Below are positions 35,128 to 59,894 of a stretch of 64,000 nucleotides of DNA, in pieces. The notes under the pieces are model-generated. The model was not told where the DNA came from. It searched no databases and was given only the letters and a program-made list of their open reading frames with translations. A program made the translations under genes and the position numbers. Source of the DNA: a bacterium (GTDB lineage: Bacteria > Patescibacteriota > Minisyncoccia > Phycocordibacterales > CAIZLB01); assembly GCA_037127815.1 (NCBI GenBank), contig JBAXXP010000002.1, forward strand, positions 142,943 through 206,942, written 5' to 3'. The number at the start of each line of letters is the position of its first letter. Position 1 is the first letter of the stretch.

Positions 35128-35143
35128 ATTTTGTATTTTGATT

Positions 35144-35175
35144 TTGGGGTCAGGCACCATGGTGCCTGACCCCAA
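35144..35175. repeat. Copy 4 of the 32-bp palindromic element (perfect)
   Basis: Lies between two co-directional HlyD-family genes, 16 nt upstream of the 35127 start. Confidence 0.9.
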
Positions 35176-35179
35176 ATGA

Positions 35180-38734: not shown

Positions 38735-38814
38735 AATTATTATTATACACCAGCACTATCACACCACCTATACTATTAGTACGATAGTTATTAGAAAAAC
38801 TTTCACTATAACAT

Positions 38815-38846
38815 TTGGGGTCAGGCACCATGGTGCCTGACCCCAA
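38815..38846. repeat. Copy 5 of the 32-bp palindromic element (perfect)
   Basis: Lies 10 nt after the metK stop and 81 nt upstream of the DoxX start. Confidence 0.9.
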
Positions 38847-38856
38847 ATTACAAACT

Positions 38857-39822
38857 CTATCTGTCCCACTCAAAACCTCTCCCAAAATGTCCCCAGGTAC
38901 ATGTATCCTTAAATTTTACGTCCTTGAAATTTAGATGATTATTTATTCCAGCTGGAGTTAAATCATAATCTGTAATCTCAACCTCTTTTCCATCAATAAC
39001 AGCAATAGCCATAACCGGCTCATTTTTCCCAATGGCATATGCAAGCTTCGTAAAAACCTCATTTGCATTATGTTTCTTAAGCAAATCAATTGCAATTTTA
39101 CGTGCCATGTAAGCGCCTGATCTATCAACTTTTGTATAGTCTTTTCCAGAGAATGAGCCACCACCAATTGTTATTTCTGGTCCATAATTATCAACAATCA
39201 ATTTCCTACCAGACAGTCCCGTATCTGCATCAAACCCACCTTGATCCCATTCTCCTGCTGGATTAATTAAATATTCGTCAGCTTGGATAATATCTTTTAC
39301 GATTTTCAGAAGCTCATCATTTTTTGAGTTTTGAAAACTTACGACAACTGTAGTGACTTTACCATCCTCAATTGTAACTTGAGTCTTTCCATCGTAAGGA
39401 TAAACTTCAAAAACTTTCTTACACAAATTTCTAGCCAACTCATATTCTAAAGGTAATAATGATACGGTCTCATTTGTTGCATATCCCTTCATAATCCCCT
39501 GATCTCCAGCTCCTCCAGTATCAACACCTTGTGCAATTTGAGGACTTTGTAAAACTAAATTTGATATTATTTTATATGAATCACCTACGATACCCTTTAC
39601 AATCAACTCAATATCAGGATTTGCTTTTGATGTAACTTCTCCATTTATTGTAATCAAACCATGACCACCCATCACCTCTACTGCAACTCTACTTTTTATA
39701 TCTTCTTGCATATATGCATCTAGAATACTATCTGCGATAAAATCGCAAATCTTATCTGGATGCTTTGGACTAACAAATTCTGCTGTTCTTTTCATATTTG
39801 TACGAATCGCCACAACACCCAT
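38857..39822 (-). CDS. metK: S-adenosylmethionine synthetase, short form
   Basis: FVSPKHPDKICDFIADSILDAY, RVAVEVMGGHGLITINGEVTS, GGGSFSGKDYTKVDRSGAYMARKIA (the GGGAFSGKD P-loop-like motif). Confidence 0.85.
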   Translation of the reverse strand: MGVVAIRTNMKRTAEFVSPKHPDKICDFIADSILDAYMQEDIKSRVAVEVMGGHGLITINGEVTSKANPDIELIVKGIVGDSYKIISNLVLQSPQIAQGVDTGGAGDQGIMKGYATNETVSLLPLEYELARNLCKKVFEVYPYDGKTQVTIEDGKVTTVVVSFQNSKNDELLKIVKDIIQADEYLINPAGEWDQGGFDADTGLSGRKLIVDNYGPEITIGGGSFSGKDYTKVDRSGAYMARKIAIDLLKKHNANEVFTKLAYAIGKNEPVMAIAVIDGKEVEITDYDLTPAGINNHLNFKDVKFKDTCTWGHFGRGFEWDR

Positions 39823-39849: not shown

Positions 39850-40006
39850 TAAATTAAAAATTCCTCATAAAGAGGAAAGATAGATGACTAGTCTTATCTT
39901 TCCATAATAATGCTTTCGCACTATCTGGCTGGATTTAGCACCTACTCATTTCTGAGGGTTGCCGATGGGTCGTTGAGCCAGTTGCTCTCGCCATACTCGT
40001 GATACA
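39850..40006 (-). ncRNA. SAM-I (S-box) riboswitch with terminator, in the metK leader
   Basis: Minus-strand sequence GGCGAGAGCAACTGGCTCAACGACCCATCGGCAACCCTCAGAAATGAGTAGGTGCTAAATCCAGCCAG...AAAGCATTATTATGGAAAGATAAG. This aligns with the SAM-I consensus (GAGAGG..GGGACUGGCCCGAUGAAACCCGGCAACC.AGAAAUGGUGCCAAUUCCUGCAG...GAAAGAUGAG). It is followed by a CCTCTTTATGAGG hairpin and a U-run before the metK ATG. Confidence 0.6.
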
Positions 40007-40108
40007 ACTAATTTAGTTGTGGCTACATTGTAGCACTACTCAGTTTGCAATACAATCACGCTCTATTAATTATTTGATTAATGAGCATGATTAGGTTAAA
40101 ATTATCGT

Positions 40109-40729: not shown

Positions 40730-40997
40730 ATTCTCGGCTACTAAAAATTATCGTTAATTTATAAGAATCCAGAAGCTACAACAGAAGATACAAAGATTAT
40801 TTCTTAGTAAGATATTTTCGAACCTGTCATTAGGAGATGATAACATAACGCCAGAATACACATTGGCATTTAAATTTCTTACAGAATGACTACCTGTAAT
40901 AAATGATAGTTTAGAACCACAAAACTATGGCTCTAACAAAGGAAAAGAGAGCACTTTCGTGCCCTCTCATCCTGTCTTGCTCCGCGGGTAGGATTCG
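40730..40997 (+). pseudogene. Remnant 3' end of a serine-recombinase gene plus a copy of the tRNA-Asn 3'-end core: relic of an older integrated element
   Basis: 40799..40997 is about 95% identical to 50998..51195 (the recombinase C-terminal codons plus CCGCGGGTAGGATTCG). The homology decays further 5' toward 40730. No intact ORF upstream. Confidence 0.6.
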
Positions 40998-41116
40998 CCC
41001 CTCGCCCTTCGGGCTCGAAATTCGTGCCCTTATCTCGCGGAATCAGGCAAAAGAAAAAACGCCAGCTGTGCTGACGCCTTTTCTTCTGCTGCTCCGAACT
41101 TGGGGCGATGTTCGAA
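40998..41116. repeat. attP-derived arm (P'), copy A
   Basis: CCCCTCGCCCTTCGGGCTCGAAATTCGTGCCCTTATCTCGCGGAATCAGG... is homologous to the arm at 42282..42400. Confidence 0.5.
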
Positions 41117-42211
41117 TTATTGTTGTAAATTCTGAATTAATGGATTTTCAATTGTAAATATATCGCTCGCTGCATTCATACCAAGACCTGAATTTTCTAT
41201 TTGAACTTGATAAAGACCTGGTAAAATATCTGACGGTATATTCCAAGTATATGTACCTATTGATACACCCGGGTTCGGATTAAAATATGTATAATCATGT
41301 CTAGATGAATCATAAATTCCCCAACCTAACATAGCTGAAATGGTTATTACACGCATTGGACCACTCCAGTTAATTTGGACTGACTTTCCTGCTTTCCAGA
41401 CTGTTGATTTGTTTGGGGAGATTATTTTTACAGCAGAACCTCCATTTGTATTTGAAGTATTAGCAGATGTGGATACATCATCAAGCACGCTATTAGTTTT
41501 ATTAGTAAAAATAATAGTTGGAATAATCTCATCGATTCCTACGCCACCAACATTGTTCACAGCACGGCTATAACTAGAAATTTCAAGAATATTCCCTTTT
41601 GAATCCACAGGAATAAACACCATCTCTCCCCCACCACCAGATATTTCATTATGATAAATAACCTCAATCGCTTTTTTACCTCCCACAGTTATATTTCTTT
41701 TTATCACATTAGAATACTCGGGATTCTTGACCTCATTATCTACCGTTTCCTCATAAGTAAAATTTCTTCCAAGCACCTGGTTGTAACGAATACCCTCTCT
41801 AAAATCTAAACTATTAGCAAAACTAATTTCTATACCCGTACTCTGTTCACTGACCGTAGGTTGCCCCATTGTTGGTGGGTATTTAAAAGTAAAATCTATT
41901 TTATCATTAGTGTATGTTGACCAATTTTCATTTACATCATTACCCAAGGTTGGAACAACCGGAAACACATCAACTGTAGTTTTTAAAGTTTTTTTATTAA
42001 TATTGTCTGAATTTTTAATAATCGAAGATGTGGTTGATGAGGAATTATTTGTTAATTCTTTTACAGGCGAAGGATTCTCTGGCGTAGATTCTTGTTTTAT
42101 TTTATTGTTTGAAGTGTTTTGCATATAAAAATATGTTGCCACCCCAACCCCTAATAAAACTACAACCATCATCATTAGAGGAACTATAAATCCTCTTTGT
42201 GTATTTTTCAT
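41117..42211 (-). CDS. Secreted hypothetical protein (signal/TM anchor, Ser/Thr-rich linker)
   Basis: N-terminal FIVPLMMMVVVLLGVGVATYFYM; it is the only gene between the att-like copies A and B. Confidence 0.5.
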   Translation of the reverse strand: MKNTQRGFIVPLMMMVVVLLGVGVATYFYMQNTSNNKIKQESTPENPSPVKELTNNSSSTTSSIIKNSDNINKKTLKTTVDVFPVVPTLGNDVNENWSTYTNDKIDFTFKYPPTMGQPTVSEQSTGIEISFANSLDFREGIRYNQVLGRNFTYEETVDNEVKNPEYSNVIKRNITVGGKKAIEVIYHNEISGGGGEMVFIPVDSKGNILEISSYSRAVNNVGGVGIDEIIPTIIFTNKTNSVLDDVSTSANTSNTNGGSAVKIISPNKSTVWKAGKSVQINWSGPMRVITISAMLGWGIYDSSRHDYTYFNPNPGVSIGTYTWNIPSDILPGLYQVQIENSGLGMNAASDIFTIENPLIQNLQQ

Positions 42212-42266
42212 ATTACAATTGTATCAGAATCAAATATTATATACATCTTTTTATTTTCACTCTAAT

Positions 42267-42400
42267 CGCGGGTAGGATTCGCCCCTCCTCCGTCGAAATT
42301 CGTACCCTTCTCTCGCGGATCAGTTAGAAATAAAAATGCACCAGACAAGCTGGTGTTTTTTATTCTAATGCTCCGCGGACTTGATTCTGTTCGACTAGCA
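42267..42400. repeat. att-like core copy B (CGCGGGTAGGATTCG) plus a P' arm with an embedded bidirectional terminator
   Basis: The core is at 42267..42281. The arm CCCCTCCTCCGTCGAAATTCGTACCCTTCTCTCGCGGATCAG is homologous to copy A. A hairpin CACCAG-ACAAG-CTGGTG with a T6 run lies at 42339..42362. Confidence 0.5.
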
Positions 42401-42480
42401 CTCATTGAGGATGGTTTGGATGATTTAGCGAAGATTGAGAAAGTTAAAAAGAAACAGAAGTCCAATATATAATTTAATAC

Positions 42481-43473
42481 TTATTCAGGTTGGGTTGTCT
42501 CTTTCATTTTTTTGAATCTAGCTAAAGCTTCTGGTGTAACTTTTTCAACAGAACTCATACCGTCTGTTACGCTTAAATATTCTCTAAATCCACCATTTAC
42601 TCCAACTAATCCCATTTCAGATGGTTTTGCAACTTCTTTTGTAATTCTTCCCATAGGATCAGCATCCCAATCTGGTTCCTTATTAGAAGCTATTCTTCCA
42701 GCTCTTACATCACGGACGAACCATCTTTTTCCATCAGCAATTACTTCCTCTCCAACATTGAAATGTTGTCCGTTAAAAAGAAAAGCACCCTCTTTTAATT
42801 TGTCTTTATTTTCATCAGTCATGTATTTTACTTTACGACCTTCCATGCCGTCCTCCATTTCAGTGGCACGGCCATTAAAAGCTCCGACTTGCTTTGGTGG
42901 ATTCTCATCTTTACTAGATCTGTCGCTCTCCAGAGTGGAAATTTGATCCTCGAGTGTCTTAATCCTTGCTCTTTCACTTGAGATACTGGGAGGTTCTTGG
43001 GAAGAGCCCTCTTTCATTCCTAAACTACCTCGAATTGACGACAGCTTGTCTGCCGTAAACTCGATACCATTTTTAATTGTTTCAATAGCAGAAACACGTT
43101 TCAATACTTCTCCACCAATTTCTTGTTCAGACAACATCTCTTCCTTAGGTTCGGGATTTTTTTCAACATTATTTTCTAAGCCTGATTCTATAGACTCACT
43201 CCCAACAAAGGTTATGTCCTGACCATCTTCAATCTCTGCGCCATTAGCGTCATGTTTCTTTTCCTGTGGAACTGGATGATTTTTTTCAAAGGAGATCATT
43301 GTTTGTATATTATAATTATTAGTAAAGTATACAACATACAAGGAAAAAAAGAAGCCCATACCTAGGTATAAAAATAACCCCATATTAATGGGGCTATTTT
43401 CGTCGGCTCGCTTGGCAGTTCGCATTCCGAACCTTTGACTGGTCAAAAGCTGTGGGGGACATAGAAACAACAA
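42481..43473 (-). CDS. Hypothetical membrane-anchored coiled-coil protein (element cargo)
   Basis: Hydrophobic MGLFLYLGMGFFFSLYVVYF segment, then a charged coiled-coil region. The real start is probably the internal Met near 43383. Confidence 0.45.
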   Translation of the reverse strand: MLFLCPPQLLTSQRFGMRTAKRADENSPINMGLFLYLGMGFFFSLYVVYFTNNYNIQTMISFEKNHPVPQEKKHDANGAEIEDGQDITFVGSESIESGLENNVEKNPEPKEEMLSEQEIGGEVLKRVSAIETIKNGIEFTADKLSSIRGSLGMKEGSSQEPPSISSERARIKTLEDQISTLESDRSSKDENPPKQVGAFNGRATEMEDGMEGRKVKYMTDENKDKLKEGAFLFNGQHFNVGEEVIADGKRWFVRDVRAGRIASNKEPDWDADPMGRITKEVAKPSEMGLVGVNGGFREYLSVTDGMSSVEKVTPEALARFKKMKETTQPE

Positions 43474-43623
43474 ACAAAGAAATTAATCACCTGTTGTCTT
43501 TAATATAAAGATAATATCGTAAGTATCGTCTGTGGATTTTGAAAGGCTGGGAGGGGATACTCCTTTTACACTAGTCCCCGTCAGTTATAGAAAAAAAGTA
43601 GTGTTACCTATTAACTTAAGTAA

Positions 43624-44208
43624 TTATAAGTTATGCGTAGAATTCTTGATTGTTTCATTAACGATATCAGAAACAGTCTTTGTAGATACTGCCTTTCCAC
43701 AAATTGCTCTCAATTTTTGTTGACCAACTTCTCCATAAATCCATACGAAAAATACCGTGTCAGGATTATCTATAAAAGATATGTCTGCCTGTACTCCCCC
43801 ATAATCATTATCTGAGGCATCCAAAATTACAAACTTGCTTTGATAATATTTCTTACTAAAATTATTCAAACCACAATTCATATCCTTGCTTATATTCTCT
43901 AAAGCTTCTACTTCCAATCCATTATTTGTTCCATCCAAATATCCATTTAGAGCAGTACGAATTTGTTTTATGTATGGACTATTAAAAATTTCTTCTTCAG
44001 TTGGGTTTTTTCCAATTACAGGAGGGTTTTCTACCTCGAGGTTTTTTATAGCACCTTCTATTTTAGCTGGATCTACAGTCCCCTTTTGTGTTTCAGAAAC
44101 AACAGGAGCTTTAGTAGGTTGAACTTGAGACCAATACAAAACACCAGCTAAGATAACCAGAGCAGAGACGATAACTATTATGTGTTTATATTGATTTATT
44201 TTTTTCAT
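43624..44208 (-). CDS. Secreted hypothetical protein (element cargo)
   Basis: Signal/TM segment IIVIVSALVILAGVLYW; no family recognised. Confidence 0.5.
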   Translation of the reverse strand: MKKINQYKHIIVIVSALVILAGVLYWSQVQPTKAPVVSETQKGTVDPAKIEGAIKNLEVENPPVIGKNPTEEEIFNSPYIKQIRTALNGYLDGTNNGLEVEALENISKDMNCGLNNFSKKYYQSKFVILDASDNDYGGVQADISFIDNPDTVFFVWIYGEVGQQKLRAICGKAVSTKTVSDIVNETIKNSTHNL

Positions 44209-44328
44209 ATGGTTATTCTATCACACGCAACTAAAATATGTCTTAAGAAAAACAATATCAGATGGACTTTTGGATACATTATGGAATAATTAAGTAGTAA
44301 TTTAGTTATGATTTTCCAATGAAATAAT

Positions 44329-44637
44329 ATGAAAAAACACCCATCTATAAGACAAGTCAAATATGCCTACGGATTAATGAATGAAAATAAAACCAAACAG
44401 CAAATAGCCCTTGATTCTGGTTTCTCGCCAAGTACTGCCCGAGTTCCCAACTCAATCGAAAATAAGATAGGTTTTAAGCTTGCTATCGCTCAGATAGCTG
44501 GAGAGATGGAGAACGTCGCTATGAAGCTCATGTACGAGCTTGAGGTGCGTGATATGAGTAAGATGGACAACAAGACCTTACTTTACTCTCTTGATGTAAT
44601 TTCAAAGACTCACGAGCGTTTTATGGCCAAAATCTAA
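44329..44637 (+). CDS. Small HTH protein, possibly terminase-small-subunit-like or a recombination directionality factor
   Basis: The N-terminal KQQIALDSGFSPSTARVPNSIENKIGFKLAIAQ resembles the HTH of phage small-terminase / regulatory proteins. It is on the same strand as the recombinase. Confidence 0.35.
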   Translation: MKKHPSIRQVKYAYGLMNENKTKQQIALDSGFSPSTARVPNSIENKIGFKLAIAQIAGEMENVAMKLMYELEVRDMSKMDNKTLLYSLDVISKTHERFMAKI

Positions 44638-44777
44638 TAAACATAAGGAATTTCCATACTTCAACATTCAAACTCCACTTCCCTTTATATTTATTTAAAA
44701 TGTGGTAGTATTTTAGTACAACTTAATAAAAGAAGTAGCCTAAACCTATGTTGAAATATATAGGCATGGTGAAAAAA

Positions 44778-44882
44778 GTCCTGACAGACATAAAAAACCC
44801 ATCATATGGGGTGTCTGTCAGGCCGTACTGGGAAACTGGTATTGGAGAGCGCAAGCTCTCCACTCATGTGGTGGGCTTTTTG
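44778..44882 (+). ncRNA. Candidate structured small RNA or cis-regulatory leader
   Basis: An 11-bp stem CCTGACAGACA...TGTCTGTCAGG encloses a small hairpin. It is followed by GGAGAGC-GCAA-GCTCTCC (GNRA tetraloop), then CCAC-TCAT-GTGG, then GGGCTTTTTTG. The whole lies 35 nt upstream of the 44917 ATG. Confidence 0.3.
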
Positions 44883-44916
44883 CGTTCTTGATTATATTTA
44901 TTTTAAATAAAAATAC

Positions 44917-45813
44917 ATGAAAAAATATCTTTCAATTATAGTCCTACTTATAATAATAACTCCTTCGATTGCCCTAGCCTCGTGGTGGAATCCCTTCACT
45001 TGGGCATGGCTTGGTAAAACTATAAATACTCAAACTATACAGGAATTGTCAACTACAACATCATCGGTTGCAACATCAACTTATAAGAATATTCATGCAA
45101 CTACTTCAATAAATTTAATAGGTGATAAAGCTAAAAAGTCTTCAAAAACAGAAGTTCATATTCAAAAACAATCAAATGTTGAACCTTATATATCATCAGT
45201 TCAAGATCTGCCACAAAAAACTAACGAGGTAGAAAAAAGTTCCTTATTAAAACAAGATGAATCTATTAAACCATATATAGATATTAAGGTTAATGGGCAA
45301 GATGGTCCAATTACCGTAAATTTGAACTCTTACGTTACTGTTTCTTGGACATCAAAAGGTGTTCTGTCTTGTGTTTCAAATAAGAACAACAAGTCACTTT
45401 CTGGTAGTGAAATTATAAATATTAATGCACAAACAACAAACCCTTTCGTAATTAAATGTGTTTCTACCGATGGAGATAATGTGTCTGACTCAGTGTCACT
45501 AAATATCAACGGTTCAAATATTGAAAATATAGATCCTTATGGTGTAGTACCCTTGAAATCAGGCGATGTTTATACTCCAGATCAACTAAACTTAATTGAC
45601 TGTACATATCATGGAACTAACTGTAAACCAATGACCACCATTTACCAAGATGTTCAACCTGCTTCTGTTCAAAAACAAGTCTTTGATTGTTGGTCATATC
45701 AAGTAGAACAGAAAAAACTCGATGAGAGTTATGCCCAAAATGGAACCCTCTTTTCTGGTGCCAGAGCAAATGCAGATAGCGCCCTAAAAGCAAAATATGC
45801 GAGTTGTTTTTAA
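44917..45813 (+). CDS. Secreted hypothetical protein (element cargo)
   Basis: Signal peptide MKKYLSIIVLLIIITPSIALA, a Ser/Thr-rich linker, and a Cys-containing C-terminal domain. Confidence 0.5.
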   Translation: MKKYLSIIVLLIIITPSIALASWWNPFTWAWLGKTINTQTIQELSTTTSSVATSTYKNIHATTSINLIGDKAKKSSKTEVHIQKQSNVEPYISSVQDLPQKTNEVEKSSLLKQDESIKPYIDIKVNGQDGPITVNLNSYVTVSWTSKGVLSCVSNKNNKSLSGSEIININAQTTNPFVIKCVSTDGDNVSDSVSLNINGSNIENIDPYGVVPLKSGDVYTPDQLNLIDCTYHGTNCKPMTTIYQDVQPASVQKQVFDCWSYQVEQKKLDESYAQNGTLFSGARANADSALKAKYASCF

Positions 45814-45822
45814 TTCAAGTAT

Positions 45823-46533
45823 ATGAAAAAAATAATAACACCATTTATAATAGCAATTATTTTTATAACTACTGCTTACCAGTGGAATCCAGAAAATTTA
45901 AATAACCCTATTGATAAAAAGACCACAAATCAATCTGAGCAAAAACCTGTATCCGAGGCGCCTATTTCTACTACCACAAAAAATGTTCATGAGGAACCAA
46001 AAAAGATAGTCACTGAAAATACCGAAACTACGTCTATTTCAAAAACCAACACAATACCAACAAAAAATACAAAATCGAATATTGCAACTAGTACAACCGA
46101 TCCCTATGGTATTTTATCAACATCAGGTATTGCATACACCCCAGCAGAATTAAAAGCCATTGAAAGTGCTTATGCTGGAGTTTATGACCCTGCGATCAAT
46201 ACAGCCTTAAGCAAAGTTGATACTATGCAAAGAGAACGATCTGCAATTGCTGAGGCATCATTAGAATCATCATCAGGAAGAAATGTTGGTACAGTGGTTC
46301 TCTCTGAATCTGGATGTGATTATTATTTAGTTGAAACAAGTTTAGGCTATTCACTACTCGAATGGTATGGAGGTTTTGTCCAAGTAGAAGGGGGTATTAT
46401 ATATGGGAACCTAAACAGTTATGGGATGAAAGATGTCACAAACAGGAGCGGACGAAGCGGTAGAGCTTGGGTGGAGGACTACATGCTTTCAAAATCAAGA
46501 GCGATGGAAAAATATTACGATAAGTGTAATTAG
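45823..46533 (+). CDS. Secreted hypothetical protein (element cargo)
   Basis: Signal/TM segment MKKIITPFIIAIIFITTAY and a Thr/Ser/Asn-rich linker. Confidence 0.5.
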   Translation: MKKIITPFIIAIIFITTAYQWNPENLNNPIDKKTTNQSEQKPVSEAPISTTTKNVHEEPKKIVTENTETTSISKTNTIPTKNTKSNIATSTTDPYGILSTSGIAYTPAELKAIESAYAGVYDPAINTALSKVDTMQRERSAIAEASLESSSGRNVGTVVLSESGCDYYLVETSLGYSLLEWYGGFVQVEGGIIYGNLNSYGMKDVTNRSGRSGRAWVEDYMLSKSRAMEKYYDKCN

Positions 46534-46814
46534 CAAAACTTGTATTAGACAAGACTAAAATTTGACTTTTACAAATAACTTGCTAGGCTTATATAGAAGC
46601 TCTTTGCATCGTAGTAAATTTTCTGGAGAATTGATTTGTTGTATGGGACAGTTATGATCAGTCAAATTCAAAGGGAATGTTCAGAACAATATATTTAAAA
46701 TAGATAACTCCCGCCTTATGGTAAGTTATCAAGGGTAAATGTGTGAAGCTGACAATCTAATAGGTTTTTCCTATTAAGTTGTCAATTTTACATATTAACA
46801 ATCATGTAGAAAAG

Positions 46815-46841
46815 ACAACCCCCAAAGGGTTGTTTTTTGTT
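46815..46841 (+). terminator. Rho-independent terminator
   Basis: ACAACCC-CCAAA-GGGTTGT followed by a T6 run. Confidence 0.6.
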
Positions 46842-46901
46842 TAGATAGAAGCAACAAACCTATTTATTCAAAACTCCAACACTTACTTATTAATATTAAT
46901 C

Positions 46902-49415
46902 TTGTTTTGTGTGATAGCTCTAAGTGAAGAATCTAATCAGTTACCACTTAGGGTTATCACACGGCATGTAACTGATTATATGAACAATATAAACATCCTC
47001 GCCAAAACTTTTGGCGAACAAAAACGTTGGGTAAATTACAAATTAATTGAAAAAGACGGTAAATTAATAAAGCCTCCATTCAAAACAGACGGGAGTCTCG
47101 CATCATCGACCGACAGCGGTACATGGTCTAACTACGAAGATGCTATAAAATCATCTCCTAATGTTGGCATAATCTTTACTCCAGATAAATTACTTCTTGG
47201 TATTGATATTGATCACTGTCTTGAAGACGGGGTGATTTCTCACGTAGAAAAAGAAAAGATTGAGAAACTAGTCATCAAGGCAAATACTTATACAGAAATA
47301 TCCCCCTCCAATACAGGACTGCATTTATTTCTTTCTTTGACTGAACCTCTAGAAATTCTAAAAAATAAAAGTGCCCCTTTTGAAGTTTATATATCTGGGC
47401 GTTATTTTACTGTAACAAACAACCCATACATAGAAGCTCGTCCTGTTCGTACAGTAACACCAGATGAAGCTTTTAAACTACTATCAATTATTGGTTATCC
47501 TTGGAATAAAAAAGAAGACTTTCAACAAAATATTGTAACGCTTAATACTTTATCACTCAGTGATGAAGAGATTATAACTAAAATATTCTCTTCAAAAAAT
47601 GGAGCCAAAATTAAATCACTTTACAATGGCGACATATCAACATACGGTGACGATGATTCTTCAGCAGACCTAGCATTATGTTCTTACCTAGCTTTTTGGA
47701 CACAAAAAGATCACAGTCAGATTGAACGTGTATGGCTCAATTCCCCTCTTGGTAAAAGAGAAAAAACTCAATCTCGTAAAGACTATAGAGATAGAACTAT
47801 CGAGACTGCGATAAATGGTTGTTCAGAAGTATATTCAAAATCAAGACAACAGAAAGAAGATAAGTCTGACGTTAACAATATTCAGACGGAAGTAGCAAAA
47901 GATAACACATTACTTAATGAGATTTGTAACCGAAGTGATGTAACACTATTTTGTGATGAGCAAAAAGATACTTATATTGCCTTAGACATTTTGGGGCATC
48001 AAGAGATTTGGCCTTGTGATGGTAGTTCAATAAAAAATTTACTAGCTTATATGTCTTGGAATAAAAACAAAAAACCTCTAGGTTCAGAGAGTACTAAAAG
48101 CATAATAGCCGTAATGGAAGGTAAGGCACGTTTTGAAGGAAAAGAGATTAAATTACACAATCGTGTAGCTTGGCACGATGGCAGTCTTTGGTATGATCTT
48201 ACAAATAAACAGTGGCAGGCAATAAAAATATGTGAAAGCGGTTGGGAAATTATAGGCAAACCACCAATCATCTTTAATCGATACAGCCACCAGCAGTCTC
48301 AAATTACTCCGAATCAAAACGGAAATATAGACTTATTTTTAAGGTATATAAACATAACTAATCCAGAACACCGTTTGTTATTCTTAGTTTTTTTAGTTAG
48401 TTGTTTTATCCCAGATTTTCCTCATGTAATGCTCGTGATATTTGGAGCCCAAGGATCGTCTAAATCAACTTTTTCAAAATTGACGAGAATGACAATAGAC
48501 CCATCAATGATTGATGTTGTTGCGTTACCAGAAAAATAAAATGAACTTGTACAGATACTTGCGCATCATCACGCCGTATTTTTTGACAATGTATCTCACG
48601 TCAGTGAAGATACATCAGATACAATTTGTCGAGCAATTACTGGTAGTGGTTTTTCAAAAAGAAAGCTCTACAAAAATGATGAGGATATCATATACAAATT
48701 TAACAGATGTTTAGGAATTAACGGAATAAACCTTGTTACTATTCGACCAGATTTACTTGAAAGAAGCCTACTAATAGAATTGGAAAGAATTGACCCGACA
48801 AAGAGAAAGCATGAAAAAGAACTCTACGAGAATTTTGCACAAGATTTACCATCTATTTTGGGAGGAATATTCGATATATTAGTAAGAACTTTAGAAATCA
48901 AGTCTACAATCAAAATTAACTCTCTACCTCGTATGGCAGACTGGACTATTTGGGGATGTGCAATTTCAGAAGCATTAGGATATACAAAAGAAGATTTTTT
49001 GAAGGCGTATGAAAATAATATCAACAGGCAGGCTGAAATGCTGTTAAATGAAAATATCATAGCTACTACGTTATTTTCATTCATGGAAGATAAATCAAAT
49101 TGGAGAGGAACTGCTAGCGAACTTCTGGATAGTCTATATTCAAAGACTCCTACGGATTATTTCGCTAAGTATGAGAAGTTTTGGCCAAAAAGTGCTGGCT
49201 CTTTATCTCGTAAATTAAATGAACTAAGCACGTATCTAAAGCAAATGGGAATAGTTGTAAACATTAGTACTACTGGCAAGGAAAGGTACATTGATATAAA
49301 AAATATTTCTAAAGCTAAGGAATCTATAGAGAAAAATAAGCAGATTCCTATTGGCGTTAGAGATGACGATACTTACGATATTTTATCAATACCAAAAAGA
49401 GACATTTTTGCTTAG
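46902..49415 (+). pseudogene. Prim-pol (bifunctional primase/polymerase N-terminal domain) fused to a D5/P4-type primase-helicase NTPase, interrupted by a single in-frame TAA at 48537..48539
   Basis: The N-terminal KRWVNYKLIEKDGKLIKPPF matches the prim-pol motif. Walker A GAQGSSKST lies before the stop. Reading on in the same frame (frame 0) gives NELVQILAHHHAVFFDNVSHVSED... (Walker B hhhhD) and joins the ORF 48780..49415 without a frameshift. Confidence 0.65.
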
Positions 49416-49431
49416 ACCCTTAACACCAACC

Positions 49432-49593
49432 AAGATGTTAAGCAAAGAAATTATTAGTGAGTTTCAGGAGGTTCTAAAAGAAGAGTACGGCAGGAACGTA
49501 ACCTTTCAAGAAGCATCCTCAATACTTTGTGGTTTGGTGGCCTATTTTGACACGCTTGCAAAAATAAACCATCTTATGCAACAAGACCCCTGA
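49432..49593 (+). CDS. Small hypothetical protein immediately upstream of the recombinase
   Basis: MLSKEIISEFQEVLKEEYGRNVTFQEASSILCGLVAYFDTLAKINHLMQQDP. Its position suggests a possible accessory or directionality factor, but it is unverified. Confidence 0.3.
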   Translation, partial: KMLSKEIISEFQEVLKEEYGRNVTFQEASSILCGLVAYFDTLAKINHLMQQDP

Positions 49594-49635
49594 GTGATAT
49601 ACTGGGTAAAATACTTATAAATTAATCTAACAACC

Positions 49636-51189
49636 ATGGAAACTAAAGCTGTATCATACTGTAGGGTGTCATCTAAAGAACAAGAGGAGTCTGGCTATTC
49701 CCTACCATCACAGGAGAAGTTACTTGCTGAGTATGCAAACAGGAAGGGATTAGATGTGACTAAAGTATTTGCTGTAGCTGAATCTGCAAGTGGAGCAAAA
49801 CAAAGAAAGATATTTAGTGAAATGATGGAGTATATGGAAAATAAGGGCATATCTATATTGTTATGTGAAAAAGTTGATCGTCTATCGAGAAATTTAAAAG
49901 AAGCTGTGGTTGCAAATGATTGGATTGAGGCTAATCAGAAAAGACAAATTCACTTTGTAAAACAAAATCTTGTTATACACAAAGCTTCTAAATCTGATGA
50001 AAAATTTCGTTGGGATATTGAGATTGTTTTGGCGAAGAAATTTATTTCAAATTTATCAGAAGAGGTTAAAAAGGGACAGAAGGAAAAAATATCTCAAGGT
50101 TGGTTACCAACAAAACCCCCTCTAGGATATATAACGACTGGAGACAAAGGTCACAAAATACATCTAGTTGATACAGAAAAATCTTCTTATATCAAAAAGA
50201 TGTTTGAGCTTTATTCTACAGGCAACTATTCCATACCCGCCCTTGTTGAGGTCATGTACACAGATGGTTTCAGAAACAGAGAGGGTAAAAAGGTTGGAAA
50301 GTCTAGATTACACGACCTGTTATCAGACCCTTTCTACTGTGGAGAAATGAAATGGAATGGCCAAATATATTCCGCAAAACATAAACCTATTATCACAAAA
50401 GAACTATTTGATTTAGTTCAAGAAAAGATGAATCGTAAGTTTAAAATTCCTAGATATCAAAAACATTTACCAATATTTAAAGCTAAAATCGAATGTGAGG
50501 AATGTAATGGAACTATTACATGGGAAACCCAGAAGGGTCATTGGTATGGTCATTGTAACCACCATAAAAAATGTGGTCAAAAAAATTGGTGGAAACAAGA
50601 AAAGGTTGAGGAAAGGATATTCCCATACTTTGAAGGAGTAGCACCCAAAACCGCTAAGGTATTACAAATTATTGAAAGAGCAATTATAGAGAGTCACAGT
50701 GATGATACAAAAGATAATTCTAATTCACTAATTGAAGTTAATAGACGTATAGAGACATCACAACGTAGACTAGAGGCAATTTATGAAGACAAGATTGATG
50801 GAAAAATTTCTATTGATTTTTACAACAAGAAATTTACTGAATACACAAAAGAAAATGAGGAGGCTACAAAATTATTAGTCAAAGCCAGTAAGGGAAATAT
50901 AAAATATTATGAATCGTGTTTCAAAATTCACGAGCTTGCTTCAAATGCTTCACTTATCTACAAGAGCCCTAAAGCCACAACGGAGGACAAAAGACTACTT
51001 CTTAGTAAGATATTTTCGAACCTGTCATTAGGAGATGATAATATAACGCCAGAATACACATTAGCCTTTAAATTTCTTACAGAATGGCTACCTGTGCTAA
51101 ATGATAGTTTCGAACCACAAAACTATGGCTCTAACAAAGGAAAAGAGAGCACTTTCGTGCCCTCTCATCCTGTCTTGCTCCGCGGGTAG
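49636..51189 (+). CDS. Large serine recombinase (resolvase/invertase-type N-terminal catalytic domain, recombinase domain, zinc ribbon, coiled coil)
   Basis: Catalytic-serine context AVSYCRVSSKEQ, a resolvase fold, DUF/recombinase domain, a zinc ribbon CEECNG...CNHHKKCGQ, and a C-terminal coiled coil. The stop codon lies inside the tRNA-Asn 3' end. Confidence 0.9.
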   Translation: METKAVSYCRVSSKEQEESGYSLPSQEKLLAEYANRKGLDVTKVFAVAESASGAKQRKIFSEMMEYMENKGISILLCEKVDRLSRNLKEAVVANDWIEANQKRQIHFVKQNLVIHKASKSDEKFRWDIEIVLAKKFISNLSEEVKKGQKEKISQGWLPTKPPLGYITTGDKGHKIHLVDTEKSSYIKKMFELYSTGNYSIPALVEVMYTDGFRNREGKKVGKSRLHDLLSDPFYCGEMKWNGQIYSAKHKPIITKELFDLVQEKMNRKFKIPRYQKHLPIFKAKIECEECNGTITWETQKGHWYGHCNHHKKCGQKNWWKQEKVEERIFPYFEGVAPKTAKVLQIIERAIIESHSDDTKDNSNSLIEVNRRIETSQRRLEAIYEDKIDGKISIDFYNKKFTEYTKENEEATKLLVKASKGNIKYYESCFKIHELASNASLIYKSPKATTEDKRLLLSKIFSNLSLGDDNITPEYTLAFKFLTEWLPVLNDSFEPQNYGSNKGKESTFVPSHPVLLRG

Positions 51190-51249
51190 GATTCGAACCT
51201 ACGACCAATTCGTTAACAGCGAACTGCTCTACCACTGAGCTACCGCGGA
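51178..51249 (-). tRNA. tRNA-Asn (anticodon GTT)
   Basis: Reverse complement TCCGCGGTAGCTCAGTGGTAGAGCAGTTCGCTGTTAACGAATTGGTCGTAGGTTCGAATCCTACCCGCGGAG. Anticodon loop CTGTTAA. Confidence 0.85.
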
Positions 51250-51368: not shown

Positions 51369-51974
51369 CTACCTTGTCACCATTATGTCCCCAGAGGCTG
51401 TAGTTTCAGCTACATCAGACTTAACTGTCACTCTTCCTGTTATGTCTTGAAGTATCAGATATCCTGTATCATAGCTGTCTGGAGTCTCCCAGAAGGCGCC
51501 TGTTTTCTTTGGATCAAAGGGTAATGAGGAAATATAGGTCGGGGAAATACAATCCGCTATATCAAACACTCCAGCCCCAACTCCACTCTTCATAGGCTCA
51601 AATGTTGTTGGTATATTTTTTGCCTCCCCATTACAACTGAATACCCCACCATTATCTGCAATGTTTTGACTCACTGCATTTAGAACTGATGCAACATTTG
51701 CGGTACGTTGAGAATCTCTTGCTGTCTTAAATTGCTTGGCAGGATTCACTGCGACCAAAACAACAGTTGCAAGAATTGCCAGAATTCCAATTACCACTAA
51801 AACCTCTATCAAAGTAAAACCAGCAGTAGCACCAACTGTACTGGATACATTAGTATTTTTCTTCACAAACTTATACTTCTTCAAAAAATTTGAAATAGCG
51901 GTCTTTTGTGCCACGCTTTGATTACGCGTCACAGGAACAGCTCTTCCAATTACATTTATTTTATTCATGTTCAA
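51369..51974 (-). CDS. Type IV pilin-like protein with an unusually long leader
   Basis: Prepilin cleavage/methylation motif AGFTLIEVLVVIGILAILATVVLVAV, preceded by about 50 residues. Confidence 0.7.
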   Translation of the reverse strand: MNMNKINVIGRAVPVTRNQSVAQKTAISNFLKKYKFVKKNTNVSSTVGATAGFTLIEVLVVIGILAILATVVLVAVNPAKQFKTARDSQRTANVASVLNAVSQNIADNGGVFSCNGEAKNIPTTFEPMKSGVGAGVFDIADCISPTYISSLPFDPKKTGAFWETPDSYDTGYLILQDITGRVTVKSDVAETTASGDIMVTR

Positions 51975-52001
51975 ATCGTATCAAAGCAACATAAAGAATC
52001 T

Positions 52002-52667
52002 CTAAATATTTTCTAAAGAATCGATAAAGTTATTTATGAGATGTAGTTTACTAATATATGACCTATATTCATCCAATCTCCACTCTACATATATCCTTGA
52101 ACGATTACCCTCATCTACAAATTGATCTTTTCCTACCCCACCAACACTTAAAACACCGAGGGTGCTGTAACCTTCTATTATAGATCTATAGCTGCAACCG
52201 GAGCCTACATCACAAGCTTTCAATTCTATCACTTTGCAATTGTAGTTTTCAGAGCCACTTCTACCATTTATTGAATACCTAGAGATATTTGCATCTACCT
52301 GACCAATGACTCCCATACCATTACCATTTGCCCCGACGTTGTGTATCCAATAATTATTGTCTATAGGTGAATTTATTTCCAATCTCTGTAGATAGTCAAT
52401 TAAATCAGTGTTTAATGATGGATACTTTGCTAAGATATTTGAAATCTGTCCAACACACAAAAAAGAGCTCTGCAAAGCCCTTTCTGACTTTATTATTTCT
52501 CTCACATTATCAGCAATTTTCTTCTGATTTTCAGAGTATTTTATCATCATCAAAAGTAATGACATTGATACTATTATGACAAAAATAAGCAATGCAAAAC
52601 CATTCTCATACACTCGCAAAATCACACGATTCCCAGATTTCTTTCTTTCATTAAATTTTAGCACCAA
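52002..52667 (-). CDS. Hypothetical membrane-anchored protein, possibly a degenerate pseudopilin
   Basis: N-terminal ENGFALLIFVIIVSMSLLLMMI resembles a degenerate prepilin segment. It lies in the pilin cluster. Confidence 0.35.
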   Translation of the reverse strand: MVLKFNERKKSGNRVILRVYENGFALLIFVIIVSMSLLLMMIKYSENQKKIADNVREIIKSERALQSSFLCVGQISNILAKYPSLNTDLIDYLQRLEINSPIDNNYWIHNVGANGNGMGVIGQVDANISRYSINGRSGSENYNCKVIELKACDVGSGCSYRSIIEGYSTLGVLSVGGVGKDQFVDEGNRSRIYVEWRLDEYRSYISKLHLINNFIDSLENI

Positions 52668-52794
52668 GAAACTATATCAAATAGACATAAAGTCACGATA
52701 AAGAAAAGGTAAAGAATTACCCTACTTTTAATTTTACGCGGAATATTCCAGCGACTGTCTATATATTACAATATCTCAAACCTCTTCTTGTACC

Positions 52795-53418
52795 CTAGAT
52801 TCCAACCACTTTCTTTCTTTCTATTTTTAACCACCACAGGAATGCAACTATACCTATTACAGAAAGGATAAGTCCAACCTCAGAGAAATATTTTCCAAAT
52901 AGATGCCATTTTCTACCAACCAAAACTCCAAGCATTAAATAAGCGACAGACCAAACTGTTGCACCGACAATATTCCATAGGTTAAATGTCTTGAAGTCCA
53001 TACCAGTTGTCCCTGCTACTATTGGAACAGCGGGACGTATTGGGCCAATAAATCTGGCCATAACAAGGCTTTTTGCCCCATATTTATCAAAAAAAGAATG
53101 CCCCACCTTCAGATTTTTTGTACTTAAATATCTATGATGATCCTTGAAGAATCTTCTGCCGTATTTACCCAGGGAATAACTAATCATATCACCAAGTGTC
53201 GCACCTATTATTGAGGCAATTACACATGGGAAAAAATGCATATAGCCCTGAGAAATTACTGAGCCAAAATAAAGCATCACAATAACTCCTGGAAATACGG
53301 CTCCAACAGGACTTGATTCTAGACCTGAAATTATAAAAACTATCAAATAAACAAGAACGCCCATTGATGCAAAATAAGGCATTGAGTCTATTATTGGTTT
53401 GATTAGAAAATCTAACAT
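52795..53418 (-). CDS. DedA / SNARE-associated (TVP38) family membrane protein
   Basis: Conserved DedA core: ...RFIGPIRPAVPIVAGTTGMDFKTFNLWNIVGATVWSVAYLMLG. Confidence 0.8.
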   Translation of the reverse strand: MLDFLIKPIIDSMPYFASMGVLVYLIVFIISGLESSPVGAVFPGVIVMLYFGSVISQGYMHFFPCVIASIIGATLGDMISYSLGKYGRRFFKDHHRYLSTKNLKVGHSFFDKYGAKSLVMARFIGPIRPAVPIVAGTTGMDFKTFNLWNIVGATVWSVAYLMLGVLVGRKWHLFGKYFSEVGLILSVIGIVAFLWWLKIERKKVVGI

Positions 53419-53510
53419 AGATTGATTATATCAGAAAAAATGACTTTTACTTAGGGAAAATTAAAGCAGTACGGCTAAATTCACGATGCACAACAAATAA
53501 CTGAATTTGA

Positions 53511-54161: not shown

Positions 54162-54214
54162 AGGCTTATTTATATCTGGATATTAGCACATATATGCCAT
54201 TTGTAAAGAGGTTG

Positions 54215-55708: not shown

Positions 55709-55772
55709 AGTAATATTATATCACTATAAGTAAAAAAGTTTAAGAATTATAATGCAAGAAATCCGAAAATGA

Positions 55773-56219: not shown

Positions 56220-56272
56220 GATGGTTATATTATAGCCTTAATTTGGGGTTTTGGCCAAGGTAAGTAGTTAAA

Positions 56273-59835: not shown

Positions 59836-59855
59836 ACACTTATTGTATCATATAT

Positions 59856-59887: not shown

Positions 59888-59894
59888 ATAAAAG

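Follow-up and report, generated by a model that had tools for sequence, protein, structure and literature searches.

Large serine integrases follow a rule for the spacing of motifs in their attP and attB sites. In archaeal integrases of the SSV1 type, which belong to the tyrosine family, attP lies inside the integrase gene, and integration into a tRNA gene splits that gene to both ends of the provirus; the split was reported to inactivate the integrase. SCCmec and the ssrA islands of Dehalococcoides target rlmH or the tmRNA gene (PMC3146451), and the use of tRNA or tmRNA genes by serine integrases (S-Int) was previously unreported (PMC4383910, PMC7192596).

The stretch analysed here, called the window, comprises 64,000 nucleotides of a contig from a member of the Patescibacteriota (JBAXXP010000002.1). 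A first-pass annotation, made from the sequence alone, had proposed the serial integration of related elements at a tRNA-Asn gene. An array of large serine recombinase (LSR) elements was indeed found at this gene, with boundaries and a number of generations other than those proposed.

Results

Recombinase and tRNA gene

Three features lie at the right end of the array:

49636 to 51189, plus strand: LSR, truncated integrated-state form of 517 aa, catalytic motif intact
51143 to 51166, minus strand: predicted terminator hairpin for tRNA-Asn in the P-left arm, antisense within the last LSR codons
51177 to 51249, minus strand: live attR, GCTC (51177-51180) and intact tRNA-Asn(GTT)

The open reading frame at 49636-51189 has an N-terminal resolvase domain (PF00239, E = 6.7e-20), followed by a recombinase domain (PF07508, E = 1.1e-15) and a weak match to Zn_ribbon_recom (PF13408, 18.2 bits, under the cut-off of 25.3). 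Among 25 homologues the zinc-ribbon residues C287, C290, C307 and C313 are invariant, as are the catalytic residues S12, R82 and R85, with R10 nearly so, and the closest solved structure is the catalytic domain of the TP901-1 integrase (E = 4.6e-9). With the resolvase domain at its N-terminus and the recombinase and zinc-ribbon domains at its C-terminus, as in S-Int, the protein is predicted to be a large serine recombinase, as had been supposed. Its stop codon (TAG, 51187-51189) lies within the 3' end of the tRNA-Asn(GTT) gene, which both ARAGORN and Rfam placed on the minus strand at 51177/8-51249.

The 3' end of this tRNA is present three times, as the first-pass annotation had stated. The 16-mer CCGCGGGTAGGATTCG occurs exactly at 40982-40997 (copy A) and at 51180-51195 (copy C, contiguous with the intact tRNA and the recombinase stop), and with one mismatch at 42266-42281 (copy B); zero matches were expected by chance (100 shuffles). 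Copies A and C lie in a direct repeat of 211 nt with 95% identity (40792-41002 versus 50990-51200), which contains an identical stretch of 84 nt. BLAST widened the copy A side, a recombinase stub, to 40773-40997 (93.8% identity), and the stub matches 50972-51195 (211-225 nt, 94-95% identity), which bears out its earlier description as the decayed relic of an older recombinase; further left, identity is only about 65% over another 45-60 nt. No recombinase remnant precedes copy B, again as described. Copy A is spanned by contigs L087, L088 and L090-L092 and copy C by L001-L006, at 99.9-100% identity and in independent assemblies from NCBI, JGI, ENA megahit k141 and Logan. The 211-nt duplication is not an assembly artefact, an objection that had been raised in advance.

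The hairpin at 51143-51166 ranked first in a terminator scan. It lies with its T-run on the tRNA's strand, within the last ~45 nt of the LSR gene, and seven of the nine pairs of its stem have compensatory changes across 32 loci. This covarying hairpin, encoded by the LSR gene, stands in for the tRNA's own terminator.

The recombinase family

A genome scan returned 79 LSR loci. The LSR 3' end overlaps a convergent tRNA in about 57 of them: in 38 the tRNA, convergent with the LSR stop, was called by ARAGORN, and in about 19 others the LSR gene runs into tRNA 3' sequence overlooked by ARAGORN, in many cases owing to a group I intron in the tRNA. The targets are mostly tRNA-Asn, with Gln, Arg, Asp, Leu and Ser also represented. 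In at least 87 of the 120 closest protein clusters the sequence terminates in tRNA-derived codons, and at least 15-25 possess the C-terminal tail described below.

In unintegrated copies, including a circular contig, the LSR is 546-557 aa long. In integrated copies the gene ends in tRNA-derived codons (LLRG and stop), and its last ~33 codons are detached as an orphan "tail" 4.9-11.4 kb upstream of the LSR end. Such tails were found in about 38 loci (tail HMM, E between 1e-5 and 3e-19), all on the same strand as the LSR and preceded by a hairpin terminator and GCTC. When the attL and attR consensus sequences of about 26 loci were compared, only GCTC was common to both, and a TTCGAAC motif lies ~5 nt farther from GCTC in the P-right arm than in the tRNA. 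These arrangements indicate that the LSR gene is split at every integration of its element.

Free forms point in the same direction. L172, a 7798-nt contig with a 127-nt terminal overlap and no tRNA, encodes a full-length LSR of 546 aa with an intact attP, in which the tail follows GCTC directly with no tRNA-like core; it is a circular free form of ~7.7 kb. L174, also without a tRNA, encodes a full-length LSR 69% identical to that of the window and shares with the window an HTH protein, a LOOT RNA, sec298, p194 and a Prim-Pol, intact in L174 at 752 aa. LOOT RNA was found in 22 of the 79 loci, in a search of the 10 kb upstream of the LSR gene. L042 is a clean array of two elements, each with one LOOT RNA, in the order orphan tail, element a, LSR-tail fusion, element b, second LSR 3' end, tRNA-Asn; in L039 an LSR stub is joined to a tail. 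Together the loci make up a large, undescribed LSR family whose predicted cleavage site is the final few bases of tRNA genes.

The live element

The element next to the tRNA has these parts:

43378 to 43393, no strand: terminator hairpin, B-left arm of live attL, directly downstream of tRNA-Asn before the last integration
43406 to 43508, plus strand: live attL, GCTC (43406-43409), then class-1 orphan tail AWQFAFRTFDWSKAVGDIETTNKEINHLLSLI and stop, found by the tail HMM
43410 to 51180, plus strand: single complete element of ~7.77 kb, bounded by attL and attR
44737 to 44860, plus strand: LOOT RNA (RF03000), full length, 80.4 bits in Rfam against a gathering score of 46.4
46902 to 49415, plus strand: prim-pol/helicase gene with in-frame TAA (48537-48539), uninterrupted in homologues

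The orphan tail (HMM match 43407-43502, E = 2.6e-9) is in frame with the LSR across GCTC and closely resembles the contiguous tails of the full-length LSRs P0021, P0026 and P0081. Since it lies at 43410-43508, the intact element runs from about 43410 to 51180 and not, as first proposed, from 42282 at copy B to 51195. Nor does the 16-nt core serve as the crossover site, as attL and attR share only GCTC (4-7 nt) across the family. Copies A and B were rejected as crossover cores of the live element, whose own attL and attR share GCTC only: these tRNA gene fragments of 15-20 nt are found beyond its left end, at distances of 1.1 and 2.4 kb. The gene p272 (42481-43299) was likewise rejected as cargo, being outside the boundary at 43410. 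Because the repeat at the live boundary is only 4-7 nt, searches of the Islander type would misplace or miss it.

The element carries p194 (minus strand), a small predicted HTH protein with the LOOT RNA immediately after its gene, two secreted proteins, the primase-helicase and the LSR, and the majority of these genes are common to the unintegrated L174. The LSR, of the serine family, is its only recombinase: no tyrosine-family integrase was found in the element, and a scan of its six other proteins revealed no second resolvase-domain gene of a Ccr/Dsi-type pair. The prim-pol/helicase homologues in L027 and L174 are continuous, and the window copy is probably a pseudogene; the element is intact in extent and probably defective. 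Every recovered contig spanning the site in the window's population (99.9-100% identity) carries the insertion, with no uninserted site among them, and no excision junctions were found for this population. Given the nonsense codon and the uniform insertion, the element may be immobile.

Older generations

Left of the live element lie the following:

40730 to 40978, plus strand: stub, fossil 3' end of an older LSR gene, P-left arm, seen from the 211-225-nt repeat and the P-left profile
40979 to 40997, minus strand: copy A, GCTC and tRNA-Asn 3' end up to the T-loop, joined to the stub exactly like live attR
40998 to 41049, minus strand: pseudo-tRNA body A (CCCCTCG..TCGAAATTCGTGCCC..TCGCGGA), with colinear short matches to tRNA-Asn
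41050 to 41088, no strand: bidirectional terminator hairpin A (stem 41060-41076), seen by inspection of the sequence
41089 to 41157, plus strand: relic attL A', TGCTCCG, then class-2 orphan LSR tail (LLRTWGDVRIIVV to a stop)
41117 to 42211, minus strand: sec364, secreted or membrane protein with Kre9_KNH Ig-like domain
42266 to 42330, minus strand: copy B (tRNA 3' end as far as the T-loop, 15 of 16 nt matching) and pseudo-tRNA body B
42338 to 42356, no strand: bidirectional terminator hairpin B, from the terminator scan on both strands
42369 to 42472, plus strand: relic attL B', TGCTCCGCGG, then class-2 orphan tail (MLRGLDSVRLALIEDG to a stop), 33 open codons
42481 to 43299, minus strand: p272, surviving gene of the B' generation, outside the live element

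The stub is matched by the P-left profile at 40859-40983 (E = 5e-25), carries an in-frame TGA and holds a copy of the terminator hairpin (40945-40968, minus strand). Joined to it as in the live site, copy A is a predicted fossil attR. The right flanks of copies A and B are homologous over ~125 nt, as the first-pass annotation had proposed; they are not the element arms that it took them for, each consisting of a pseudo-tRNA body and a terminator followed by a weak orphan-tail relic. Body A matches tRNA-Asn at AATTCGT and CGCGGA and is homologous to body B and to modules in L056 and L070. Hairpin A sits in the B-left position of relic attL A' and can be aligned to its counterparts in unit B, L056 and L070, and the 21-nt motif CCCCTCnnnCnTCGAAATTCG was found only in unit B, L056 and L070. 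Relic A' shares 93% identity with the LSR-tail junction of L040 across 29 nt (E = 3.9e-5) and gave the second-best match to the class-2 tail HMM in the window (12 bits, E = 0.39); the best was relic B' (14.3 bits, E = 0.07), whose tail is similar to that of P0091, MLRGLDDVRTVLLEG.

Counted outwards from the tRNA, the first generation is the live element (~43410-51180), the second is tail relic B' with p272, and the third, older still, is tail relic A' with sec364, its sole surviving gene, which has no paralogue among the other units. The fourth is the LSR stub of ~250 nt fused to the tRNA 3' fragment of copy A. Between generations lie pseudo-tRNA-Asn modules, whose 3' parts are copies A and B. 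All on one side of the tRNA there are thus the live element, both tail relics, the LSR stub and two fragments of tRNA 3' end; the multiple generations proposed earlier were found, at least four being visible and not three.

Discussion

We consider it likely that the tRNA-Asn gene is the attachment site for small elements of Patescibacteria (CPR) that are moved by a dedicated LSR clade. Members of this family measure ~7-11 kb and combine a prim-pol replicon with a LOOT RNA and a small number of secreted proteins. While an element is free and circular, its LSR gene runs across attP and gives a product of ~546 aa. The GCTC common to attP and attB falls on positions 71-74 of the tRNA (last pair of the acceptor stem, discriminator and one base more), and strand exchange is presumed to be the usual 2-bp serine-recombinase crossover inside it. 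Integration leaves the mature tRNA sequence unchanged and the last ~33 LSR codons at the far end of the element, as the orphan tail in attL. Since the tRNA stays intact, new elements could insert beside residents, and the site would accrete. The use of a tRNA by a serine recombinase had been called unusual, and so it is; the long sequence identity counted as part of that oddity is not present, only GCTC being shared. As the LSR would work without long identity, that mechanistic oddity falls away, and its place is taken by a split integrase gene and a crossover at the tRNA discriminator.

Several observations count against this model. Tail relics A' and B' are weak matches (E = 0.39 and 0.07). 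Under simple accretion an old LSR should run straight into a new tail, an arrangement seen in L042 and L039, whereas in the window a pseudo-tRNA and terminator lie between generations and a plain terminator lies left of live attL; the simple model would not lead one to expect this. Furthermore, the pseudo-tRNA copies of the window (A and B), L056 and L070 share derived changes despite distant hosts.

A possible though doubtful addition to the model is that the pseudo-tRNA modules are footprints of a second system that targets the T-loop. A non-autonomous cassette of ~100 nt, similar to a CIME, would displace the old tRNA 3' end together with the attached LSR and bring a fresh 3' end and terminator, restoring a clean attB for the next LSR element. 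This would explain the T-loop boundary, the succession of stub, core, body, terminator and GCTC at A, the fact that modules A, B, L056 and L070 are homologous although their hosts are distant, and the match of the L056 core to that genome's own tRNA variant; similar small duplications of flank and tRNA 3' end occur in L055, L067 and L048. However, no recombinase was seen for such a system, the motif was found in three genomes only, with two collection scans giving no matches, and in L067 the duplicated terminator and the host copy are identical, a sign of local duplication and not import.

The mechanism first proposed for the array, which we regard as unlikely, was recombination within 15-20 nt of identity between the tRNA 3' end and the T-loop, with A, B and C as junctions, an element at 42282-51195, and, after each core, a P' arm of pseudo-tRNA body, terminator and tail relic that had travelled along as a fossil. 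It has a precedent in the Dehalococcoides ssrA islands, which are associated with a CcrB-like LSR and have 20-bp repeats ending in the tmRNA T-loop (PMC3146451), and no other reading accounts for the A-B-C pattern in so few events. Conservation of the P'-like sequence in L056 and L070, with their distant hosts, stands at 96-100% over 24 nt, as expected of mobile or att-related DNA, and unit B places AATTCGT 4 nt farther from the junction than the tRNA does. Nonetheless, the canonical orphan tail at 43407-43502 would then sit 1.1 kb inside the element, a T-loop-bounded tRNA copy was found within 500 nt in only 4-5 of ~38 canonical-tail loci, and the free attP of L172 has its tail right after GCTC with no such core. 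P-left joined to a tRNA-like right half is an attR-like site, and no LSR is known to recombine attR with attB. Contig L094 does link the true LSR 3' end to the body after core A; being a k=31 contig, it could have switched paths within the 84-nt identical stretch.

L094 could also be the product of local tandem duplication, or of unequal homologous recombination between cores or LSR 3' ends, with no independent integrations at all. Homologous recombination would find a suitable substrate in the 211-nt repeat, with its 95% identity and 84-nt identical stretch, and the sharp drop in identity left of 40773-40792 resembles the edge of a gene-conversion tract. This origin is nevertheless improbable for the array: the genes of the units are unrelated (sec364, p272 and p194 have no similarity), the tails differ in class and sequence, and the units have diverged very unevenly, with identity of 95% in some parts and about 50-70% in others, which duplication would not give. 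That the tRNA belongs to the element, the LSR-tRNA overlap being a fixed cargo module and the repeats incidental, is scarcely credible despite the great regularity of the overlap, since the free forms L172 and L174 lack a tRNA, six tRNA identities occur among the loci (some with host-type group I introns), ordinary chromosomal genes lie beyond the tRNA, and the orphan tails show interruption of the gene exactly at the tRNA end.

Comparison with known systems

The attachment of LSR elements to tRNA-Asn, which remains our preferred reading, recalls the islands of tyrosine integrases (Islander signature, PMC4383910) in that the target is a tRNA, its function is preserved, fragments record history and the hot spot holds arrays. 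Such islands are typically bounded by a displaced tRNA gene fragment of >10 nt; the live element is bounded by GCTC and leaves essentially no displaced fragment (4-7 nt). Like the SSV1-type integrases, the window LSR has attP within its gene, which is partitioned by integration at a tRNA. The enzyme family and chemistry differ, however, and the LSR loses only ~33 of ~546 residues, its catalytic and DNA-binding domains staying in one piece.

Like SCCmec (CcrAB) and the Dehalococcoides ssrA islands (DsiB, a CcrB-like LSR), the elements insert at the 3' end of an essential gene present in one copy and build up tandem arrays in which some members are degraded and att fragments are repeated, and the 20-bp repeats of Dehalococcoides end in the T-loop as do copies A and B (PMC3146451). 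Those islands have direct repeats of 15-20 bp at every boundary and a second small recombinase (CcrA or DsiA), whereas the live element has GCTC only and a single LSR; here the target is a tRNA, and the recombinase is target-proximal and convergent with it.

With the phiC31, Bxb1, A118/LI and TP901-1 integrases the window protein shares the order of its domains, Resolvase first, Recombinase next and last a zinc ribbon with four invariant cysteines. As in other large serine integrases of phages and ICEs, its gene lies at the element edge beside attP, the identity of attP and attB appears to be very short, and the recognition motif is ~5 nt farther out in attP than in attB. Unlike those integrases, which target protein-coding or intergenic sites, the whole clade of the window LSR targets the extreme 3' end of tRNA genes, its reading frame spans attP, so that the C-terminus changes on integration, and its P arm doubles as the terminator of the target gene.

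Recombinase gene and repeats at tRNA-Asn

The product of the ORF at 49636-51189 is a genuine large serine recombinase (LSR), which matches Resolvase, Recombinase and, weakly, a zinc ribbon, and its TAG stop falls within the intact tRNA-Asn(GTT) gene, located at 51177-51249 on the minus strand. It was previously proposed, in a first-pass annotation of the sequence, that related elements had integrated here serially, leaving three copies (A, B and C) of the tRNA-Asn 3' end and a duplicated recombinase 3' end. The repeats on which this proposal was built are present as described. The tRNA-Asn 3' 16-mer occurs at 40982 (A), 42266 (B, with one mismatch) and 51180 (C), where chance would provide none, and 40792-41002 matches 50990-51200 with 95% identity over 211 nt, or 93.8% over 225 nt by BLAST; leftwards of about 40773-40792 the identity drops to some 65%. 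The concern that the duplication might be an assembly artefact was removed, as the same structure was found in independent assemblies from several lake samples; MAG GCA_964417855.1 also matches the window. The relatives of the window, by LSR and by metK, are Patescibacteria (metK is 80.6% to a Nomurabacteria contig). The multi-generation array of LSR elements is real, but its att sites, element boundaries and mechanism had to be revised. GC content is flat across the region, so that composition marks no boundary. The possibility that the units are tandem duplicates of one another was rejected, since they have no paralogous genes in common.

A split integrase gene defines the att sites

It was found that a minority of the LSR homologues are 546-557 aa long and run past 'LL' into a conserved tail, which is of two classes: class 1 (AW[RQ]DAFRTFDW and about 22 further residues) and class 2 ([TG][WL]DDVRT...). 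Orphan class-1 tails were detected by a tail HMM in about 38 loci (E 1e-5 to 3e-19), all of them on the same strand as the LSR and 4.9-11.4 kb upstream of its end, and each after a hairpin terminator and GCTC. When attL and attR are compared, GCTC is the sole sequence that they share; its bases fall at tRNA positions 71-74, which cover the final acceptor-stem pair, the discriminator and one more base, and the mature tRNA is thus left untouched. The LSR gene spans attP and is split on integration. As the crossover cuts through this gene, the att sites can be read directly from genomes. A difference in half-site spacing separates attP from attB in serine integrases, and in the reconstructed attP the TTCGAAC is about 5 nt further from GCTC than is the T-loop TTCGAAC of the tRNA. 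When the reconstructed attP was scanned for dyad symmetry, the terminator hairpin gave the main signal, and a centre inside GCTC was only weakly indicated.

In the window the following features mark the left end of the live element and its RNA cargo.

43378-43393: terminator left of the live attL
43405-43410: GGCTCG, between terminator and tail
43407-43502, plus strand: orphan class-1 tail, live attL (tail HMM E = 2.6e-9)
44737-44860, plus strand: LOOT RNA (RF03000)

After GGCTCG the tail reads AWQFAFRTFDWSKAVGDIETTNKEINHLLSLI and then a stop, in frame with the ...TTG CTC of the LSR, and it closely resembles the contiguous tails of three LSR homologues (P0021, P0026 and P0081). The position of this tail gives an intact element of about 43410-51180 (7.77 kb). 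Copy B, which had been taken as the left end of the young element, lies 1.1 kb outside it. A weak tail relic at 42369-42472 (B') was also considered as the live attL and was discarded, as the tail HMM places the latter at 43407-43502.

The live element contains p194, a small predicted HTH protein, LOOT RNA, two secreted proteins, a primase-helicase and the LSR. Searches of the cargo proteins here and in related loci against Pfam and PHROGs returned nothing beyond primase, integrase and, in the related contig L174, a STAND-like NTPase. An in-frame TAA at 48537-48539 splits the prim-pol/helicase gene into ORFs of 545 and 211 aa. All contigs of the population carry this stop, which is lacking in the continuous homologues of L027 and L174, and the insertion was found in every recovered contig of this population that spans the site. 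The live element is probably defective and fixed. Among contigs with the left-flank gene p134 no empty site was found. A 32-nt inverted repeat (43499-43530 and 49365-49396, 81% complementary) was also seen, with one arm just inside the left end, directly after the orphan tail, and the other some 240 nt ahead of the LSR start; it may serve in regulation or as an accessory site, or be due to chance.

LOOT RNA was found directly after the small predicted HTH gene in both the window and L174 (3711-3829), and also in L019, L032, L040, L042 (two copies), L010, L070, L075, L077 and others. Using a 3-sequence covariance model, 25 matches were obtained within 10 kb upstream of the LSR gene, in 22 of 79 LSR loci. 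LOOT RNA is cargo of these elements.

Recombinase family and tRNA targeting

A scan of one genome per species yielded 79 loci, nearly all from Patescibacteria, with LSRs 46-69% identical to that of the window. In 38 of the 79, ARAGORN called a tRNA convergent with the LSR gene, the 3' end of which either overlaps the LSR stop or lies directly against it; these tRNAs are mostly Asn, with Gln, Arg, Asp, Leu and Ser as well. About 19 more loci have at their end tRNA 3' sequence that escaped ARAGORN, in many cases owing to a group I intron in the tRNA, bringing the total to about 57. Such introns (Rfam RF00028, 63-95 bits) were identified in target tRNAs just downstream of the LSR end in L019, L020, L032, L043, L054, L056, L081 and L083, and as they hide the tRNAs from ARAGORN, standard tRNA-based island finders would miss these junctions. 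In all, 2419 proteins scored E <= 0.001, and at least 87 of the 120 closest clusters in a collection of 5.8 billion proteins (about three quarters) have tRNA-derived C-terminal codons, ending in '...LLRG' or reading through to '..DSN..'. The only close LSR relatives in the viral collection were prophage calls truncated within the tRNA, with no circular forms among them. No description of LSRs at tRNA genes in Patescibacteria was found in the literature covered, subscription journals lying outside it.

A predicted terminator inside the integrase gene

The strongest terminator-like site of the region lies on the tRNA strand at 51166-51143, 11 nt downstream of the tRNA. It is a hairpin, GAGAGGGCAC-GAAA-GTGCTCTC followed by a T-run, and is located within the LSR codons for KESTFVPSH. 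The same hairpin is present in the fossil LSR 3' end (the stub) left of copy A, and it was retained across 32 loci despite sequence variation, with compensatory double changes in 7 of the 9 stem pairs. In attL the distance between host terminator and GCTC is similar to that of the LSR-encoded hairpin, which, along with the conservation of the latter, suggests that the element replaces the terminator that it displaces. Since the predicted terminator is encoded there, the last ~45 nt of the LSR gene are conserved at the nucleotide level among proteins that are only about 50% identical.

Two other motifs were seen near these sites. Beyond the T-loop, TTCGAACC is found at 51109-51117 and at homologous positions in L041, L048 and L067; the conserved LSR residues 'FEP' are encoded by it, some 75 nt short of the crossover. 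A similar palindrome, resembling GGTTCGAACC, is often present 40-100 nt left of attL, as in the flanks of L010, L025, L036, L053, L065 and L077.

Older generations and pseudo-tRNA modules

To the left of the live attL two further units have a common layout of terminator, TGCTCCG and an open tail-like frame.

42369-42472: relic B', reads MLRGLDSVRLALIEDG... (compare MLRGLDDVRTVLLEG in the LSR homologue P0091)
41089-41157: relic A', reads LLRTWGDVR...

These are the two best class-2 tail HMM matches in the window, both weak (B', E = 0.07; A', E = 0.39), and A' matches the LSR-tail junction of L040 in DNA (93% over 29 nt, E = 3.9e-5). One unrelated minus-strand gene follows each relic, p272 in the case of B' and sec364 in that of A'. 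Further left, at 40730-40978, the LSR stub is joined via GCTC to a tRNA 3' fragment, exactly like the live attR, and is a fossil attR. Arrays are a trait of this element family: in L042 there is a tandem of two complete elements, in which the LSR of the first runs into the tail of the second and each has one LOOT RNA, and in L039 an LSR stub is fused to a tail.

Copies A and B proved to be the 3' parts of pseudo-tRNA-Asn modules, each placed just left of a tail relic and made up, in order, of tRNA sequence up to the T-loop, CCCCTC..TCGAAATTCG..CGCGGA, and a terminator. Homologous modules were found in the same position, beside a canonical attL, in L056 and L070, from hosts of only distant kinship (38% identity in the VTT protein); a VTT-domain gene and the first pilin-like gene are the only flank genes common to the three. 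Analogous T-loop-bounded copies with duplicated flank occur in L055, L067 and L048. Such copies are not a general attL feature, being present in only 4-5 of about 38 loci, and the idea that body and terminator are a decayed LSR 3' end found no support (best nhmmer score 5.4 bits, against up to 7.7 in shuffled controls). The body motif had no matches in the metagenome and viral collections. One idea is that the modules are tandem tRNA-plus-terminator copies, each occupied by an element; another is that the pseudo-tRNA is used as a secondary attB. By analogy with the Dehalococcoides ssrA islands (PMC3146451), they might also be a cis-mobilisable remnant, of about 100 nt, of a T-loop-targeting system.

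A 36-nt perfect palindrome (ATTTGGGGTCAGGCACCA/TGGTGCCTGACCCCAAAT), which looks like a REP-like or terminator-type repeat family, recurs in the window at no fewer than five intergenic positions, and a SAM riboswitch lies upstream of metK (38857-39822), immediately left of the array. On the chromosomal side of the tRNA, 51369-56900 on the minus strand encodes several prepilin-type (N_methyl) proteins, a response regulator and a PAS histidine kinase.

38813-38848: palindrome
5584-5619: palindrome
59853-59890: palindrome
35136-35177: palindrome
22126-22169: palindrome
39891-40008, minus strand: SAM riboswitch (RF00162, 56 bits)

Free forms

That a free form exists is supported directly by two contigs. 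A candidate episomal form of the family was found in L172 (JGI Ga0451520_0018642), a 7798-nt contig whose 127-nt terminal overlap indicates a circle of about 7.67 kb. Its LSR is full-length (546 aa), with GCTC followed at once by the tail; attP is intact, a tRNA is absent, and the other genes of the contig belong to no recognisable families except DUF2726. In L174 the LSR is likewise full-length and is 69% identical to that of the window, with which L174 also has in common the small predicted HTH protein, LOOT RNA, sec298, p194 and Prim-Pol, the last uninterrupted at 752 aa.

For the window itself, the Logan contig L094 (SRR7053536_58264, 2340 nt) joins 42986-40998 to 51195-50845, so that 351 nt identical to the true 3' end of the LSR gene are fused to the sequence after core A. 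This junction is the one expected from a circle or tandem copy arising between the 211-nt repeats; alternatively it could be a k=31 chimera, whose path switch would fall within an 84-nt identical stretch. Excision or deletion junctions of this population were sought in metagenome_contigs with a 98-nt degenerate pattern that allowed for the A and C junctions, the circle and the deletion; nothing matched, the known forms included, and these samples are thus not in that collection.

Integration state and known systems

A reading that joins these features, which we put forward tentatively and regard as rather unlikely to hold in full, is that the split LSR gene acts as an integration-state sensor, carries its own terminator for the tRNA, and finds landing pads in the modules. 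The integration-competent form would be the full-length LSR (about 546 aa), which only the circular element would produce, and the truncated LSR of the prophage-like state, which does not have the 33-aa tail, would behave differently, for example in stability, directionality or the need for a partner. The element would pay for its use of an essential tRNA with a terminator encoded in its own integrase, and the pseudo-tRNA and terminator modules would serve as reusable landing pads on which a phylum-wide family piles up at tRNA 3' ends.

Serine integrases are prized for genome engineering because of their short att sites and independence of host factors. If the reading is true, no earlier family of serine integrases would be well defined as specific for tRNA genes, and the natural att sites of this one could be predicted from sequence. 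The use of tRNA genes by serine integrases is here systematic across a large clade, and the readable att sites provide hundreds of natural attP/attB pairs of conserved architecture. The 3' end of the LSR gene also offers a compact example of dual coding, with a protein on one strand and a predicted terminator, with covariation, on the other. The array illustrates the build-up of mobile elements in genomes as small as those of Patescibacteria, and the orphan LOOT RNA gains a genomic home. Island finders that rely on displaced tRNA fragments will mis-draw such boundaries, of which the first-pass annotation is an example.

In the SSV1-type tyrosine integrases of archaea the integrase gene is partitioned by integration into a tRNA, as in the LSR elements described here, and tRNA targeting, here the work of an LSR, is otherwise a hallmark of tyrosine integrases. 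SCCmec and the Dehalococcoides ssrA islands (PMC3146451) likewise accrete where an essential gene has its 3' end. The LSR elements combine features otherwise known separately, and are distinguished as a family by a tRNA-terminal attB, a split integrase ORF, a predicted antisense terminator and LOOT cargo.
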